Part shown: in pieces, positions 4,891 to 43,637 of the stretch
How the letters are laid out: every line of letters begins with the position of its first letter
How positions within the stretch are numbered: the first letter of the stretch is position 1
Source: Oscillospiraceae bacterium
GTDB lineage: Bacteria > Bacillota > Clostridia > Oscillospirales > CAG-272
DNA length: 64,000 nucleotides
Assembly: GCA_015065105.1 (NCBI GenBank)
Contig: SVQZ01000003.1
Location: 35,303 to 99,302, forward strand
Direction: 5' to 3'
Notes under the pieces: generated by a model
The model's database searches: none
Told to the model about the DNA's origin: nothing
What the model saw: the letters and a program-made list of their open reading frames with translations, nothing else
Program-made: the position numbers and the translations under genes

Positions 4891-6162
4891 TTATTGCAAA
4901 ATATAATCACTAATACAGTCATACCAATGGACAAACTTTTCGTCATTTACAGAATAGTTTTCATTATTGGGTAGCATTTCCGACCATAGCTTTCCGTAAT
5001 GCTTATTTGCCCAATCGTTTTTGTTGAATCTACGCCATAACACAGTTCTGCCGTTTTTATCTATATAGTGTTCGGTCAGAACTCCTGAAATGAAGTATTC
5101 AATCAAACATATTGTGTCATAAGCTTTATTCTCAAATTCAATATTGTAACGTCCAACCGCATCCCTTATATTTTTTGAGGATGAAATGCTGATACTGTTT
5201 CCGGTACGTTTTATTATACCTTGTGAGGTTATATTGGTCTCGTATCCGCAGTTATCGTCACCATAGCTCCAATCTGTATCGAAAGCATCACCGTCAAGAA
5301 ATGTTGTAATTCTTTTTACTCCGTTTTTGTCGGTATAACATTCTCCGAGCCAGCGACAGTATTTGTCGGCGAGCTGTGCGTAGTAAATAGTTTGTGCGGG
5401 GGTCATACCATCGTCATTGATAGAATTAAATTCAGTCAGTATTTCCACACCTTCTATTCCGTGAATGTAGGCGGTTGATGTGACCTTTGAAGAAACCGTT
5501 TCGGCTAATTTCCTATCCGATATATAATAGGTCGCCCATTCGATTTTTTCTCCGTTTTTGGGGATGATAAACCAATTTGGCAATTCTTCAAACTTTATCG
5601 AAATCATTGGCTTATCGGTAGGTGTTATGGTATATTCGGGTAATTTATGCGGGAATTGTGTCATAACCTTTTCTCCTTTCATAGTAGCATGATGAGGATA
5701 ATTTCTTTTGAATTTTTCTCGCGCATAGTACAAGCGGCTTTTAACGGTGCCCAAGGGTATAGATAAAAGCCTCGAAATTTCATTTTGCGAAAGTCGTTCA
5801 TTGTAATAAAGGTCAAGTATTTGTTTTTCTTTAACCCCCATAGAGTCTAAGGTGTCGCAAACCATACTTTCGGTTATATCCACAGAGCTTGTCCCCAATG
5901 CTTTTTCCGAAAGAGAATCAAGAGGGATATGTGCATCTTTACTCTTTTTGCGGTAATAGTCATTTACCTTATGCTTTGATATACCTATAAGCCAGGGCTT
6001 AAAGGAATCAATATTATTTAAGGTTTTGAATTTCATAGTAGCAGTGAGACATATATCCTGTATTAAATCCTCCCGATCATGAGTGTTGTTCACTCTGAAA
6101 TTAACGTAACGCTGAAGATAAACGAAATTTTCTTGCAGCAGCTTTTCAAATTCACTTTGCAT
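4891..6162 (-). CDS. ECF-type sigma-70 factor with a ~260-aa C-terminal extension of unknown function
   Basis: AAGGAGGTGA RBS. Region 2 (DREDLIQDICLTATMKF...WLIGISKHKVNDYYRK) and region 4 HTH (LSQNEISRLLSIPLGTVKSRLYYAREKF) occupy the first ~160 aa. The remaining ~260 aa have no long hydrophobic segment. Confidence 0.8.
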   Translation of the reverse strand: MQSEFEKLLQENFVYLQRYVNFRVNNTHDREDLIQDICLTATMKFKTLNNIDSFKPWLIGISKHKVNDYYRKKSKDAHIPLDSLSEKALGTSSVDITESMVCDTLDSMGVKEKQILDLYYNERLSQNEISRLLSIPLGTVKSRLYYAREKFKRNYPHHATMKGEKVMTQFPHKLPEYTITPTDKPMISIKFEELPNWFIIPKNGEKIEWATYYISDRKLAETVSSKVTSTAYIHGIEGVEILTEFNSINDDGMTPAQTIYYAQLADKYCRWLGECYTDKNGVKRITTFLDGDAFDTDWSYGDDNCGYETNITSQGIIKRTGNSISISSSKNIRDAVGRYNIEFENKAYDTICLIEYFISGVLTEHYIDKNGRTVLWRRFNKNDWANKHYGKLWSEMLPNNENYSVNDEKFVHWYDCISDYILQ

Positions 6163-12940: not shown

Positions 12941-14257
12941 ATGAAAAAATATATTGCATTAATTTCTATATTTTTTGTTTTAAGCACTTTTCTTACCTCA
13001 TGTAAAATTGAAGACAAGCCTGCGGTTAATTCTCTTGATTCTGCGGTGTTAGATAACGAAACTGATGAAGCAAATAAGATCGAGGATCTTATGTTTGATG
13101 ATGTTTCTGTTGAATTTCAAAATAATAATGATTATCTGCCCTTTGGAATAAATGATGAGATGAACGAGCTGATCAAAAATTATTTTGTAAGTTATTATAA
13201 ATCGCTCGGATCGCTTGAGGATCATGATATGTCCGATTATTTTACAAAGGACAGCGATTACCAAGCTTGTATTGTAAATGAAATGATTTCTTATCAGAAT
13301 GGAATCAGAAAAAACTTTACATATGATATGCAGTATAAAAAAGCGAGTGTCGGTGTTACTTACAGATCTCTTATTGAACTCGAAGACGGTTATAAGATAT
13401 ATCTTTGTGAAAATAATGCAATGAGCTTCAACTACATACAGAATATTACTTCGTATACCAGCGATGTTGAGCATTATTTTACACTTATAGAGGAAGACGG
13501 AAAATATCTTTTAACCGAGCATTCTGAAATAAGCGGAGTTTATGAGCTTATAAAGAGTAGCTTTGATAAATATACAAGTGATCTTTACGATTATAATACC
13601 GAAGAGATATTCGGTATAGTAAAGGACTATTTTGTTTCAGTAACAACAAAAGAACTAGATGCAGTAAATAAACAAAGGGAAGAGTATAACAGCTCTCCCG
13701 AGAATTATCAGACCGAGCTTTACGCTGATAATGAATATGATGTTGATGCTGCACTTGAATATTCATATGAATGGGCAGGGAAGACTGAAGCGAAAAGAAA
13801 TCCTAATTTCGGTGTTTATGACATCTACGGCGGTAACTGCAACAATTTCACGTCCCAATGTCTTTTTGCAGGCGGAATACCAATGGACCTTCAAGGGGTT
13901 CAATGGAAATGGTACGGAGAAAGCGTTAATTCTAACGGAGGAGCTTACGGAAGAAGTCCCAGCTGGGCGGAATGTGATTATTTCTATGCTTACTGTACAG
14001 AAAACGAAGGCTACGGTCTTGTTTGTGACTATTCCTCAAATATTTACAGCGGACGCCCCGGGGATCTTATTCAGTATATAGTTGACGAGACCGATGCTGT
14101 ACACACGGTTATCATTACAAAGGTAATATATGATTCGGATGGTAATGTTGTTGATTATCTTATAAATTCAAATACAACTGATAAGGTTGACAGTCCTATG
14201 AGTGCGTATGGATATACTAATTTCAGATTAATTAAAATAATTGGATGGAATAATTAA
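12941..14257 (+). CDS. Lipoprotein with C-terminal putative amidase (Amidase_6-like) domain
   Basis: AAGGAGG RBS. Signal peptide with lipobox LTSC. The C-terminal GGNCNNFTSQCLFAGGIPMD and GDLIQY...HTVIITKV motifs are typical of the putative-amidase domain, from memory. Confidence 0.75.
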   Translation: MKKYIALISIFFVLSTFLTSCKIEDKPAVNSLDSAVLDNETDEANKIEDLMFDDVSVEFQNNNDYLPFGINDEMNELIKNYFVSYYKSLGSLEDHDMSDYFTKDSDYQACIVNEMISYQNGIRKNFTYDMQYKKASVGVTYRSLIELEDGYKIYLCENNAMSFNYIQNITSYTSDVEHYFTLIEEDGKYLLTEHSEISGVYELIKSSFDKYTSDLYDYNTEEIFGIVKDYFVSVTTKELDAVNKQREEYNSSPENYQTELYADNEYDVDAALEYSYEWAGKTEAKRNPNFGVYDIYGGNCNNFTSQCLFAGGIPMDLQGVQWKWYGESVNSNGGAYGRSPSWAECDYFYAYCTENEGYGLVCDYSSNIYSGRPGDLIQYIVDETDAVHTVIITKVIYDSDGNVVDYLINSNTTDKVDSPMSAYGYTNFRLIKIIGWNN

Positions 14258-14278
14258 GGAGTTAAAAATTCACTCCTT

Positions 14279-14800
14279 TCAGACTGTCGAAAAAGTCGGT
14301 CGGACGTGTGAAACTAAAATATTAAGAAGTTAAACACTCCTACCAACAAACACCTGAGAAATAATTTATAAATCTCCCAATATAATTGAATAAGCATTCA
14401 AAAGTGGCATAAACGTCGAGTTTATGCCACTTTTTCACACTTTTCAGTGAAAAGGAGCTCTACCTTACTTAGTAAGCCTACGTCCCCTTTTCACGAAAAC
14501 CTACGCTTCCTTTTTCGAAGCCTGACAGACTGTCGAAAAAGTCGGTCGGACGTGTGAAACTAAAATATTAAGAAGTTAAACACTCCTACCAACAAACACC
14601 TGAGAAATAATTTATAAATCTCCCAATATAATTGAATAAGCATTCAAAAGTGGCATAAACGTCGAGTTTATGCCACTTTTTCACACTTTTCCGTGAAAAG
14701 GAGCTCTACCTTACTTGGTAAGCCTATGTCCCCTTTTCACGAAAACCTACGCTTCCTTTTTCGAAGCCTGACAGCGTGTCGATACTTTATCGACACGATC
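14279..14800 (+). mobile_element. Structured non-coding repeat element (MITE-like): one 3'-truncated copy (246 bp) plus one full copy (~275 bp) head-to-tail, flanked by a duplicated terminator hairpin
   Basis: 246-bp period (AGACTGTCGA at 14281 and 14527; GTGGCATAAAC at 14404 and 14650). Flanks TAAGGAGT(T/G)AAAAATTCACTCCTT at 14255-14278 and 14801-14824. An inverted homolog lies at 55081-55354. There is no ORF. Confidence 0.65.
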
Positions 14801-14827
14801 TAAGGAGTGAAAAATTCACTCCTTTTC

Positions 14828-15352
14828 TTATATAAAATCTTTTTTAATATGATCAATTGCACCCTTTTCAAGTCTTGAAACTTGGGCTTGAGAAATGCCA
14901 ATCTCTTCTGCGATCTCCATTTGGGTTTTGCCTTGGTAAAAACGCATTGCTATAATAGATTTTTCTCTTTCGTTCAATTTCTTTATCGCCTCGTTTAACG
15001 CAATACCCTCAAGCCAGCTTTCGTCGTTTGAACTGTTATCGCTGATTTGATCCATAACGTATAATGAGTCACCTGCAGATCCGTCATTGTATACCGGTTC
15101 GAATAATGATACCGGATCAACTATTGCCTCAAGCGCGTTTGTGACGCGTTCCTTTGTAGCATCTATTTCGTTATCTTTCAAATATTTCACAATATCGTCT
15201 ATATTAGGTTCTTTATCCATTCTTTTTGATAACTCGTCCTTTGCCCAAAGGGCATGATAAGCAAGATCCCGGATACTTCTGCTGACTCTGATCATGTTAT
15301 TGTCTCTCAAATATCTTCTGACCTCGCCTATTATCATTGGAACGATATGAGA
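14828..15352 (-). pseudogene. sigG: 5'-truncated SigG/SigF-clade sporulation sigma factor gene (regions 2.4-4 only)
   Basis: VPMIIGEVRRYLRDNNMIRVSRSIRD, DPVSLFEPVYNDG..LYVMDQISD and FYQGKTQMEIAEEIGISQAQVSRLEK closely match B. subtilis SigG from memory. About 70 N-terminal residues (regions 1.2-2.3) are missing. Similarity ends near 15345-15365, where an AT-rich insert begins. Confidence 0.7.
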
Positions 15353-15382
15353 AAGTAGAAATTCTAAAAAGGAGTTTCTACA

Positions 15383-15934
15383 ATGACCAGAAAACAAGCA
15401 TTACAGAGCGTTATTTCTGCAGTATCAAACAATCCTAAATATGCTGAAGAAATTCGTATTCTACAGGAAATCAGTGATGAGCTACCTCTTATCCATTGGT
15501 CTGATAGCTCAATTAGAGACACGGTTGAACAGTTTATTGTTGATAATGGTAGAGTACCAACTACATCTGATTTCAAGAAAAAAGGAATGCCACCGCATCC
15601 GGTTATCAAGCAGAAATACAAGATCACATTAGGTGAATGGTTGGAGAAATACTATCCTGTTCGAAAACCTACATATGAAGAATTAAAAGAGAAATATACA
15701 AACCTATTTGTTGAGGATTATAAGAGAATTAAACCAAAAAGTCAATATGAATTTAATAAGTTTAAAAGTCGTGGAACTAAAGGATGGCAAACTGTTGCAA
15801 AATATTATGAAGTAAAGTCATGGAGAAATTTAATAAAGAAATTGGATTTACCATTATATTTTGATATGGCTCGAGATCATAAACCAGTACAATTGAAAGT
15901 TAATTTCCATTTAGATTATGATTTTCATGATTAA
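15383..15934 (+). CDS. Hypothetical protein with two repeats resembling homing-endonuclease-associated (HNH_repeat-type) helical modules; probably from a mobile element
   Basis: AAAGGAG RBS. The repeats are IRDTVEQFIVDNGRVPTTSDFKKKGMPPHPVIKQKYKITLGEWLEKYY and a second around KSRGTKGWQTVAKYYEVKSWRNLIKKLDL. The region is visibly more AT-rich than its flanks. Confidence 0.55.
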   Translation: MTRKQALQSVISAVSNNPKYAEEIRILQEISDELPLIHWSDSSIRDTVEQFIVDNGRVPTTSDFKKKGMPPHPVIKQKYKITLGEWLEKYYPVRKPTYEELKEKYTNLFVEDYKRIKPKSQYEFNKFKSRGTKGWQTVAKYYEVKSWRNLIKKLDLPLYFDMARDHKPVQLKVNFHLDYDFHD

Positions 15935-17511: not shown

Positions 17512-18807
17512 ATGTCATTGGCATACGGAATTATAGCACTTATATCCCTATGTATGGTTGGAGCTTGTGTTATAGCCGACAAAAAGCGTGACGTATGGTT
17601 GATACTTGTTTTTGTTTCGGTGTCGGTATGTAATCTCGGGTATTTTATGTTGTCGATTTCTCAGGATCTCGGTTCAGCTCTCAATTCCAACAGGCTGGCA
17701 TACCTGGGAAGTGTATTTCTGCCCTTTTTTATGCTGATGATGGTTCTGCGCTTCTGCAATATAAGACGGAGAAAAGCACTGACGGTATCCCTTGTGGTAT
17801 TAGGGATCCTTATGCTGGGTATTACTACCACTCCGGGTATACTGCCTATATATTACAGCACGGTTGATATCGAATTCGTTAATGGTACCACAAAGCTGGT
17901 CCGTGAATACGGACCTCTGCATCTGTTGTATTACGTATATCTGTTCGGATATATGATCTCAATGGTTTTGGTGACCTTTTATGCCATCATAAAGAAAAAG
18001 ATCGGATCACGTATACATACCGCTTTGCTTCTGTGTACGGTTTTCTGTAATATTTTCATCTGGCTCATAGAGCAGTTTTTGCCCAGAGGCTTTGAATGGC
18101 TTTCGGTGTCCTATATATTGACCGAGTGCCTGATACTGGCAATTTATCGTTCTATGCAACGTCAGGGTCTTATGACAAGCGATGTCAGAGCACGATCATA
18201 TCAGATCAATATATTGCTGGCTGTTTTTTTGCTTTTATTTGCGAACTTTGTTCGTGTGATCACTATGAATACCTCTGCCATAATGTATGTGGTATCTCAC
18301 ATGGTTATCATAACGATATATCTTGGAATTCTTGTGTTCTGGGGTATATCCGTATATGATCGTATAATAAGCAAATCTTTACGGCGTTATCTTGTGACTC
18401 TCGTTGGGTTGATGATGCTGTGGATGCTTATGAGAACACTCAGACATACCGTATTTCATTATGTATTTCCCGTTGGACAGTGGTGTTGGTATGCTTTCTA
18501 TATTTCTATGATACTGATACCTCAGCTCTGTTTGTTTGCTGCAATGCATATAGGAAAGCCAGAGGGGTACAGACTGTCGAAAAAATGGTATTTAATGTAT
18601 ATTCCCTCAGCTTTGCTGATAGTTGGTATTTTAACAAATGACCTTCACCAGTGGGCGTTCTGTTTCCACGAGGGCTATGAAGCGGGGTGGGACACGTATC
18701 AAAGAAGATTTTTGTACTATGCCGCAGTGGTGTGGATATTCTTCTGCATAGTTATGATGATAGTGCAGATATTAAAGCGTTGCCGTATCCCAGAACGCAT
18801 AAAGTAA
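17512..18807 (+). CDS. Polytopic membrane protein (~12 TM), N-terminal part resembling the 7TM sensor module of histidine kinases
   Basis: AAGGAGG RBS. The 431-aa product is almost entirely hydrophobic helices. The stop at 18805-18807 lies 5 nt before the next in-cluster ORF, which is in another frame. Confidence 0.75.
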   Translation: MSLAYGIIALISLCMVGACVIADKKRDVWLILVFVSVSVCNLGYFMLSISQDLGSALNSNRLAYLGSVFLPFFMLMMVLRFCNIRRRKALTVSLVVLGILMLGITTTPGILPIYYSTVDIEFVNGTTKLVREYGPLHLLYYVYLFGYMISMVLVTFYAIIKKKIGSRIHTALLLCTVFCNIFIWLIEQFLPRGFEWLSVSYILTECLILAIYRSMQRQGLMTSDVRARSYQINILLAVFLLLFANFVRVITMNTSAIMYVVSHMVIITIYLGILVFWGISVYDRIISKSLRRYLVTLVGLMMLWMLMRTLRHTVFHYVFPVGQWCWYAFYISMILIPQLCLFAAMHIGKPEGYRLSKKWYLMYIPSALLIVGILTNDLHQWAFCFHEGYEAGWDTYQRRFLYYAAVVWIFFCIVMMIVQILKRCRIPERIK

Positions 18808-43288: not shown

Positions 43289-43637
43289 TGGTGGATCCGA
43301 GGGGAATCGAACCCCTGTCCGAAAACATATTCATTGTGCTTTCTACGGGTGTAGTTTGTTTTAAAGTTTCCCTGCAGCCTTTAAGCAAACAAAATCGGAT
43401 ACAGGTAGTTTCTTAATTCATGAGCGTTACAGAAACAACTTACGCTTCACGTTCACCACTAAAATGACACCCGCGGGAAGCCGTGGTACTCAACCGTTGG
43501 ATGGGCGCACTTAGGCAGCCTGAGCTACGAGATTATCGTTAGCGTTTAATTTTAAAAGTGTGCAGCTGTTTAAAGAGTTACTGCATCTCTACCCGCTTAC
43601 CCAACTTCAACATCCCCGTCGAAACCTTTACGGACCC
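43289..43637 (-). ncRNA. ssrA: tmRNA (transfer-messenger RNA)
   Basis: The minus-strand 5' end GGGTCCGTAAAGGTTTCGACGGGG pairs with the 3' end GGTTCGATTCCCCTCGGATCCACCA. This gives an acceptor stem with the G3:U wobble and an encoded CCA. The internal tag reading frame is GCT AAC GAT AAT CTC GTA GCT CAG GCT GCC TAA (ANDNLVAQAA*, 43511-43543). smpB lies 1.2 kb away. Confidence 0.92.

Follow-up and report, generated by a model that had tools for sequence, protein, structure and literature searches.

A miniature IS1182-type element of gut and rumen Clostridia that very probably inserts at terminator stem-loops and duplicates them

A 64,000-nt stretch of DNA from an Oscillospiraceae bacterium (GenBank assembly GCA_015065105.1, contig SVQZ01000003.1, positions 35,303 to 99,302 of the forward strand; hereafter the window) carries three copies of an element of about 273 bp, namely a tandem pair at 14280-14800 (copies A1 and A2) and an inverted copy at 55081-55353 (copy C). 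Each of the two insertion sites, A and C, makes up the intergenic spacer of a convergent gene pair (Table 1). The same 34-mer opens A1, A2 and C alike (IRL; sequence in Table 1). The tandem unit is 246 bp long and its two repeats are 98% identical; between the copies at 14.5 kb and 55 kb the alignable blocks are 79-81% identical, and the AT-rich stretch that separates these blocks has diverged. As argued below, the element is very probably a miniature, transposase-less derivative of an IS1182-family DDE insertion sequence (IS), that is, a MITE (miniature inverted-repeat transposable element), which inserts at terminator stem-loops and duplicates them.

A first-pass annotation of this DNA had singled out covarying hairpins and CAGnnTGTCGA motifs, all of which were found in place when both regions were re-read. 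The internal hairpin reads GTGGCATAAAC/GTTTATGCCAC at 14404-14430 and GCGGTGTAAAC/GTTTACACCGC at 55204-55231, with three positions differing on both arms and pairing intact. The terminal palindrome reads CGTGTCGATA-CTT-TATCGACACG at 14775-14797 and CAGCTTGTCGATA-AGTT-TATCGACAAGCTG at 55081-55110, with one covarying pair. The reported compensatory changes are thus real. CAGnnTGTCGA was found at 14280, 14526, 14772, 55081, 55100 (-), 55343 (-) and 18570. These seven matches, against 0.25 expected, were equalled in none of 100 shuffles, and six of them lie within element copies, with the tandem junction at 14526 falling exactly on the motif, as had been noted. The seventh belongs to CAGACTGTCGAAAAAA (18570-18585), which agrees with the left end of the element at 15 of its first 16 nt and lies inside a membrane-protein open reading frame (ORF; 17512-18807). 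With no other element sequence nearby, it is treated as a chance match.

Table 1. Element copies, their internal parts and the flanking host hairpins, in window coordinates.
Feature	Position	Strand	Sequence or remarks
Copy A1	14280-14525	+	core, from IRL to the internal right repeat IRR', without terminal palindrome; covariance-model match 14387-14532 (-), 133.7 bits
P4 of A1	14400-14434		same hairpin as P4 of A2
P2/P3 of A1	14444-14499		same structure as in A2
Copy A2	14526-14800	+	complete element, right tip atypical; covariance-model match 14633-14800 (-), 161 bits
IRL of A2	14526-14559		CAGACTGTCGAAAAAGTCGGTCGGACGTGTGAAA
P4 of A2, terminator-like hairpin	14646-14680	-	AAAAGTGGCATAAAC-GTCGA-GTTTATGCCACTTTT; 8 of 15 pairs change on both sides
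P2 of A2, long stem enclosing the inner hairpin P3	14690-14745	-	both-side changes in 8 of 14 pairs (P2) and 2 of 6 pairs (P3)
P0 of A2, terminal palindrome	14772-14797		CAGCGTGTCGATA-CTT-TATCGACACG; IRL-like tip plus right-end tip; found as a helix by RNAalifold
Site A, left hairpin copy	14255-14279		TAAGGAGTTAAAAATTCACTCCTTT; directly after the stop codon of the amidase-like gene 12941-14257; one mismatch to 14801-14825
Site A, right hairpin copy	14801-14825		TAAGGAGTGAAAAATTCACTCCTTT; immediately beyond the 3' terminus of the convergent sigma-factor gene 14828-15397 (-); terminator-like site 14802-14824
Copy C	55081-55353	-	complete, 273 bp; covariance-model match 55081-55247 (+), 177.7 bits
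Layout of C, read on the window + strand	55081-55353		P0 55081-55110; P2/P3 about 55135-55193; P4 55200-55234; AT-rich variable region; IRL 55320-55353
Site C, first hairpin copy	55046-55080		AGCAAAATAAGAGGCAGAATGCCTCTTATTTTGCT; 35 nt, 100% identical to the second copy; overlaps the end of gene 52665-55055
Site C, second hairpin copy	55354-55388		overlaps the end of the convergent glycoside-hydrolase gene 55379-57967 (-)

Read from its left end, the element consists of IRL (34 nt, invariant in the family), an AT-rich variable segment, the hairpin P4, the stem P2 (13-14 bp) enclosing P3, the internal right repeat IRR', a spacer nucleotide and the terminal palindrome P0. The right end is composite: IRR' is an internal inverted copy of IRL (...CCTTCCTTTTTCGAAGYCTG), and the single spacer nucleotide is followed by P0, a palindrome of 26-30 nt with an IRL-like tip (CAGCGTGTCGATA) as one arm and the true right tip (TATCGACACGCTG) as the other. 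The element-type outer ends are CAGACTGTCGAAAAAGTCGG... and ...TATCGACACGCTG, and the inverted tips within the element correspond as CAGACTGTCGA and the reverse complement of TCGACACGCTG. A1 of the window tandem ends exactly at IRR', and A2 begins after one further nucleotide, giving a core-core-palindrome array with IRR'-A-IRL junctions. A direct repeat between the left end and the start of the right-end hairpin, which the first-pass annotation had attributed to recombining ends, does exist, but it is explained by this composite architecture and not by a recombination site. Small ORFs in the variable region were considered and set aside, their start codons not being conserved between copies on reading.

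The most informative feature of both loci, absent from the first-pass annotation, is a host terminator hairpin that stands in duplicate on either side of the element. Around A1-A2 it takes the form TAAGGAGT[T/G]AAAAATTCACTCCTTT. Sixteen complete copies were analyzed for such flanks, comprising 14 in loci of metagenome-assembled genomes (MAGs), copy C, and an internally deleted copy (L026; L-numbers denote fetched loci) from which the variable region and P4 are gone. In 15 of the 16, the sequence left of the element was found again on its other side, as a repeat of 20-35 bp that is specific to the locus and matches a terminator-like stem-loop (22, 25, 32, 24, 28, 26, 30, 24, 20, 26, 24, 24, 30 and 35 bp, plus L002, which is counted here with its left repeat copy cut by a contig end). 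The whole repeat, A-run and T-run included, was a perfect palindrome in 11 copies, and in the remaining ones the stem was 1-2 nt (up to 6 nt in L016) shorter than the repeat at one or both ends. The repeats were direct, with at most one mismatch, in 12 copies. Site A and several related families (L066, L070, L100, L103 and L106) showed the same pattern. No sequence was shared between any two insertion sites, which agrees with the stem-loop targeting reported for IS1272 and some other members of the IS1182 family, and convergent gene pairs flanked 15 of the 22 insertions that have two called neighbours. Because the hairpin repeats are locus-specific, the sites share no sequence and the neighbouring genes are mostly convergent, we conclude that the target is a structure, the bidirectional terminator, and that the duplication is that same structure. 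A variable region acting as a guide RNA complementary to the target was rejected, since the same variable region occurs at unrelated hairpins.

Some flanks weigh against a simple duplication. In L001 and L016 the loop of the flanking hairpin is inverted between the two copies, which is unexpected from simple staggered-cut repair. The related family represented by L057, L060 and L078 has different hairpins on the two sides, as does L040, where the hairpins are unrelated and which is the one exception among the 16 copies. The chimeric flanks of L040 are of the same kind as those of L116, and reflect either recombination between copies or assembly mis-joins. In another related family (L098) the flanking repeat has diverged. 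No empty sites were found in other samples of the same species, two of which (L114 and L115) also hold the A1-A2 tandem. As for L116, from another sample, it has copy C itself at 4917-5189, with the same gene and terminator before it; on the far side stand a different hairpin, AGAGGATTTTCGCTGTATAAAGCGAAAATCCTCT, and then trmO in place of the glycoside-hydrolase gene, which points either to a rearrangement between two copies or to a metagenome mis-join at the repeat.

The first-pass annotation had taken the CAGnnTGTCGA ends for sites that recombine with each other, via a circle junction or by site-specific recombination of an attC-like kind, which would be the work of a tyrosine or serine recombinase. 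The motif stands in direct repeat at the left end and where the right palindrome begins, the tandem junction falls on it, the terminal palindrome resembles a recombinase core site, and the IRR'-N-IRL junction is similar to the reactive junctions in (IS)2 dimers. However, site-specific recombination would recreate a fixed core, whereas here the insertion sites have no common sequence and the hairpins, different at every locus, are duplicated in full, which indicates transposition into stem-loops. In addition, the ends match those of IS1182-family DDE transposons (see below), no integrase gene or integron context was present in the window regions examined, there was no recombinase among the neighbouring ORFs, and the defining features of attC sites were not seen by eye in the copies, although no formal search was made for them. 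Recombination at a fixed site is thus largely refuted and retains next to no probability; the motifs are the functional ends of the element, as had been supposed, but in the capacity of terminal inverted repeats. Membership among integron attC sites, which have a conserved crossover core and a linked integrase, was likewise rejected, the junction repeats being host hairpins that differ per locus. Like attC, the element would be an imperfect palindrome that is active when one strand is folded, with an asymmetry between the strands. It differs in that no integrase or cassette context and no core sites were seen, in its insertion at hairpins with duplication, and in its DDE-family ends.

An exact-match scan with GTCGGTCGGACGTGTGAAA against one genome per species returned 41 loci, 39 of which are true copies, in about seven MAGs. 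All 39 come from MAGs of gut or rumen origin with the labels Clostridia, Oscillospiraceae or Eubacteriales; contig ends are a frequent location. Near-identical copies with different flanks occur inside a single MAG, for instance RGIG1815, which is the dispersed-copy pattern of transposition; together with the many different loci occupied in several gut and rumen Clostridia MAGs, this shows that the element is mobile. RGIG1815 and SIG691 belong to MAG species in which copies are numerous. A metagenome scan with the outer 19-mer AGACTGTCGAAAAAGTCGG gave 53 loci and revealed several further families of about 230-290 bp, which have their first 20 nt in common with the element and diverged interiors. 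Most of these families keep the architecture and the hairpin-sized flanking repeats (e.g. L066, L070, L082, L100, L103 and L106). No similar DNA was found in plasmid collections. Viral contigs gave no match to the element-specific 19-mer and 12 matches, which were not inspected, to a degenerate terminal-palindrome pattern. Individual copies have been remodelled in various ways: L001 (4899-5285), L005, L038 and L039 have an extra insertion of about 110 nt (GAACAGATACGTGCCGCCAGTGGCGG...) within the P2/P3 region, L009 has a nested insertion of about 50 nt, and at one site common to two MAGs (L025 and L031) a degenerate copy is interrupted by a palindromic tandem-repeat array (GATTGTGGYTTCAGCCCACAATCT, period about 47). 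This array was ruled out as a CRISPR, since its spacers resemble one another.

The assignment to IS1182 rests on the ends of the element. The 19-mer AGACTGTCGAAAAAGTCGG is located at the exact left terminus of an 1800-bp IS in L101, which starts GAGACTGTCGAAAAAGTCGG and ends ...CTTTTTCGACAATCTC. The left tip of the element matches this IS at 19 of 20 nt, the difference being the variable first base. The 502-aa ORF of the IS scores 286 bits on the NCBIfam equivalog NF033551 'IS1182 family transposase' (cutoff 270), contains the domains DUF772, DDE_Tnp_1 and DDE_Tnp_1_6, and aligns over its full length to plasmid genes annotated as IS1182 family; its close homologues are all from a Desulfobacterales clade. 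Three further loci with the Desulfobacterales IS (L107-L109) have 16 nt of the left end in common with the element, and the right end of the Desulfobacterales IS reads ...TTTTTCGACAATCTC. The tip of IS1272, TCAGGCTGGGACATAAA, shares AGRCTG with the element, as does the tip AGGCTGTCTCAAA that an autonomous IS1182-like element from a human-gut scaffold has at both ends.

The known behaviour of the family points in the same direction. IS1272 and TnSha1, both of the IS1182 family, choose terminator hairpins of 22-30 bp as insertion sites, show no specificity for the primary sequence and delete the hairpin, and their targets have been confirmed as terminators by RNA-seq (PMC5678879; PMC4923244). 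In the published IS1272 model, duplication of the entire stem-loop is an alternative outcome, and a variant with a tandemly duplicated left end, IS1272L, has been described in the IS1272 literature. The element resembles IS1272 and TnSha1 in belonging to the same DDE family, in its tip (CAGACTG/CAGGCTG, related to TCAGGCTG...), in its 22-30-bp stem-loop or terminator targets that lack primary-sequence specificity, in being inserted immediately downstream of genes in both orientations and, for IS1272, in having variants with duplicated end sequences. In contrast, IS1272 is an autonomous element of 1.9 kb that replaces or deletes the hairpin and makes no duplication, whereas the present element is 273 bp long, has no gene and duplicates the hairpin. 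Moreover, IS1272 does not have the P2-P3-P4 module and, on a reading of its ends, has no terminal tip-tip palindrome. Since the ends, the hairpin targets and the IS1272 literature match, the element was filed as a non-autonomous IS1182-family MITE with a stem-loop-duplicating outcome.

Several observations count against this assignment. No autonomous IS1182-family copy with these ends was present in the window or in the fetched 8-kb Clostridia MAG loci, and the only autonomous element with an identical tip among the fetched loci is the Desulfobacterales IS, from a different phylum. The latter has the same left 20 nt save the variable first base and an IS1182 transposase, but its interior is unrelated and without a structured module, and it makes a 3-bp duplication (CCA) instead of duplicating a whole hairpin. 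The structured module, as represented by covariance model R1, is absent from both the Desulfobacterales IS and IS1272 and is not a general feature of IS1182 ends; it is either confined to a Clostridia lineage or a passenger. In L101 (1-30 and 1795-1830) and L107-L109, the CCA at one site forms the loop of a 7-bp inverted repeat (TGATATCT-CCA / CCA-AGATATCA), and this duplication corresponds to the 'loop-only duplication' pathway of the published model.

Other parents and systems were rejected. The IS1202 family resembles the element in its unusually long target duplications (24-29 bp) and in the ISAba32 subgroup, which targets palindromic XerCD sites. However, IS1202-family ends begin with TGT (in the IS1202 subgroup, the left one with Ta/gT), its duplications fall in classes of 5-6, 15-18 and 24-29 bp, and its transposase is related to IS481/IS3, whereas the ends of the element begin with CAGRCTG and its duplication has no fixed length and tracks the size of the hairpin (20-35 bp). 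Palindrome-associated elements derived from IS200/IS605 do not correspond either. Those have subterminal hairpins but neither terminal inverted repeats nor a target duplication, and insert 3' of a fixed tetra- or pentanucleotide, whereas the present element has terminal inverted repeats, makes long duplications and is flanked by no fixed oligonucleotide. A class C group II intron, which also targets terminators, gave no intron RNA match and would leave the duplication unexplained. The bacterial MITEs Correia, ERIC and RUP are transcribed or affect transcripts, and they have 2-bp or other short duplications and pair essentially via their terminal repeats. The element is likewise short, non-autonomous and intergenic, has terminal inverted repeats and can be folded as RNA, but it differs from them in its hairpin-sized duplication and in internal stems that covary apart from the terminal repeats.

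Accommodating these features, we propose that a transposase supplied in trans, putatively of the IS1182 family, recognizes terminal inverted repeats of the CAGRCTGTCGA type. Insertion would take place at a DNA stem-loop or cruciform, typically the bidirectional terminator common to two convergent genes, with the two strands attacked at the two feet of the stem. Gap repair would then duplicate the whole hairpin, so that each neighbouring gene keeps a complete terminator. For the tandem, a second copy would have landed on P0 of the resident copy and replaced it, an IS1272-type 'stem-loop-replacing' outcome. This is most likely the origin of the tandem, and also the simplest, because the enzyme targets palindromes and P0 is one; alternatively, the tandem may have arisen by unequal exchange between two CAGnnTGTCGA motifs. 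The right tip of A2 reads CGACACGATC where CGACACGCTG is expected, which shows some imprecision.

To characterize the interior, 15 copies of this family and five of a second sequence family were aligned in the orientation opposite to that of the first-pass annotation. RNAalifold placed compensatory double changes in 27 of 71 pairs. The predicted helices were the terminal palindrome P0; IRR'/IRL, in which the internal right repeat pairs with the left end; the 14-bp stem P2; a 5-bp hairpin inside it, P3; the 15-bp terminator-like hairpin P4; and S1, a 6-bp long-range stem that reads GUGUGA/UCACAC in this family and GCAAGC/GCUUGC in the second. Covariation was tested on a 176-column core for P0, P2, P3 and P4, giving 935 cells, a count that overstates the number of independent events, as copies within a MAG are close relatives, and that is to be held against the result accordingly. 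Standard pairs filled 99.6% of these cells compared with 86.5% in shuffles, both sides changed in 20 of 47 pairs, and none of 500 shuffles reached any of five measures. When partners were slid by 1-3 columns, pairing fell to 39-47%. Covariance model R1 matched the module in all copies, and in a third family (L100, L103 and L106) P0 and P4 were kept in the fold, with P2- and P3-like pairings discernible by eye.

The covariation in two hairpins from which the first-pass annotation had started is therefore strong across 20 copies from two sequence families, and it supports the view that structure is under selection and that the element is not a decaying gene fragment. Two small hairpins proposed alongside, CTTTTC-nnn-GAAAAG and TTTTC-AC-GAAAA, are present as sequences and are not conserved pairings. 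Across these copies, all 20 considered, the partner of the GAAAAG block is the distal CTTTTC block, the two forming P2, and the subfamilies of L002 and L003 have lost the small hairpins and retained P2 with new sequence. Because P2 persists where they vanish, the small hairpins are alternative local pairings of P2 blocks.

Flanking repeats and covariation might also be by-products that involve no selection on the interior, if hairpin-templated repair or gene conversion maintained the symmetry of the palindromes and the subfamilies differed only by descent. The copies within a genome are recent and related, which inflates the cell counts, and template switching can homogenize palindromes, with the loop flips of L001 and L016 showing that such processes occur. 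However, many different compensated sequences occur in the lower stem of P4 and in P2, a long-range stem with about 30 nt between its arms, across subfamilies and two families with diverged surroundings; template switching would give no bias of G·U pairs to one strand, which here amounts to 27:3, and it would not keep a fixed U·G inside P2. We consider such an origin very improbable. The compensatory changes reflect selection on the folding of one strand, the one complementary to the strand with IRL at its 5' end.

Which strand folds was apparent from several features. Combinations of column and pair type involving G·U numbered 27 on the reverse strand of the element and three on the forward strand, and the U·G inside P2 (columns 62/114) was the majority state, present in 14 of 20 copies. 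The fold energy of the alignment was -92.8 kcal/mol for the reverse and -65.3 kcal/mol for the forward strand, and when cores were folded as single sequences, each of the 20 copies did better on the reverse strand, the mean difference being 17 kcal/mol. On that strand a U-run comes after P4 in each of the three sequence families (weakly so in family 1), according to a reading by eye. The first-pass annotation had proposed a small RNA with its end at the internal hairpin plus T-run, as read on the + strand of the 14.5-kb copy, and the G·U asymmetry points to the opposite strand instead. The asymmetry, the fold energies and the U-run after P4 are as expected of an RNA that begins at the right end and extends to P4, and the folded strand is probably such an RNA. 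It may provide the element with a terminator or insulator of its own, or take part in cis in transposition or regulation.

Against an RNA stand the following results. No sigma-70-like promoter above background was found inside the element. With Rfam 15 at the gathering threshold, the window gave only a tmRNA and two tRNAs and no match on the element, and at a permissive threshold the best sub-threshold matches on the element were at chance level (E of 0.1 or worse). There was no orientation bias relative to the neighbouring genes (4 vs 3 in tandem-gene contexts). Furthermore, single-stranded DNA tolerating G·T would explain the strand asymmetry equally well.

The folded strand may accordingly be DNA: the reverse strand would become single-stranded during transposition, and the folds P0, P2/P3, P4 and IRL/IRR' would be recognized or processed by the transposase. 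Among mismatches in DNA hairpins G·T is tolerated best, and the strand asymmetry fits this account too. The element ends in a hairpin-forming palindrome made of its own tips, selection on a MITE acts mainly via its ability to transpose, and the negative promoter result also speaks for DNA. The transposase family demonstrably acts on DNA stem-loops (PMC5678879, PMC4923244). However, the form of an intrinsic terminator taken by P4 and its U-run (reverse strand, three families, by eye) would not be needed by a DNA fold, and the module is absent from two autonomous IS1182-family elements. In addition, we know of no single-stranded intermediate described for IS4/IS5/IS1182-type DDE enzymes. We regard a DNA fold as possible though not likely; if true, it would mirror the preference of the enzyme for hairpin or cruciform targets.

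Going further in the RNA direction, P2-P3-P4 could be a previously undescribed structured RNA of about 130-170 nt, encoded on the reverse strand and spread by the IS1182-type MITE to terminator sites across gut and rumen Clostridia. Its role could be that of a portable insulator or terminator working in both directions, or that of an RNA on which the transposition machinery relies in cis or in trans. We put this forward tentatively, as a rather unlikely extension. If such an RNA were needed for transposition, a DDE transposon that recognizes DNA structure would also depend on a structured RNA.

These findings bear on how IS1182-family transposases recognize the shape of DNA rather than its sequence. 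The only documented cases, IS1272 and TnSha1, delete the hairpin, and the present family provides dozens of insertions with the other predicted outcome. As the length of the duplication equals that of the hairpin (20-35 bp), with presumed cuts at the feet of the stem, it gives a direct read-out of where in relation to the structure the enzyme cuts. Such insertion may plausibly be a strategy of low cost as well, in which convergent genes that once relied on one bidirectional terminator each obtain their own copy. Strand-specific, RNA-like covariation across diverged families is unusual for a MITE, and if transcribed the module would be a mobile structured RNA. In practical terms, the 273-bp repeats break and mis-join Oscillospiraceae metagenome assemblies.

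Elsewhere in the window, the tmRNA gene at 43289-43637 (-), with 159 bits, and the two tRNA genes at 61028-61181 are all ordinary. Directly after the tRNA gene at 61110-61181, a 141-nt segment occurs twice in tandem (61167-61613). A 55-nt direct repeat made up of the tRNA 3' end and a long palindromic terminator occurs three times, so as to bracket each copy, and the 141-nt insert holds an inverted copy of the tRNA T-arm (GGGGGAATCGAACCC). This arrangement resembles the 273-bp element in its tandem organization and duplicated terminator; it lacks the CAGACTGTCGA ends and has no relatives in the fetched loci. A 44-nt stretch after the post-tRNA terminator (TTTGTAGGAAATTGCTCTGTTTCGTGTGAGTTGTT..., 61601-61644) is 84% identical to sequence that follows P4 of a truncated element copy (L011, about 2556-2599), and may be the end of another hairpin-seeking repeat.

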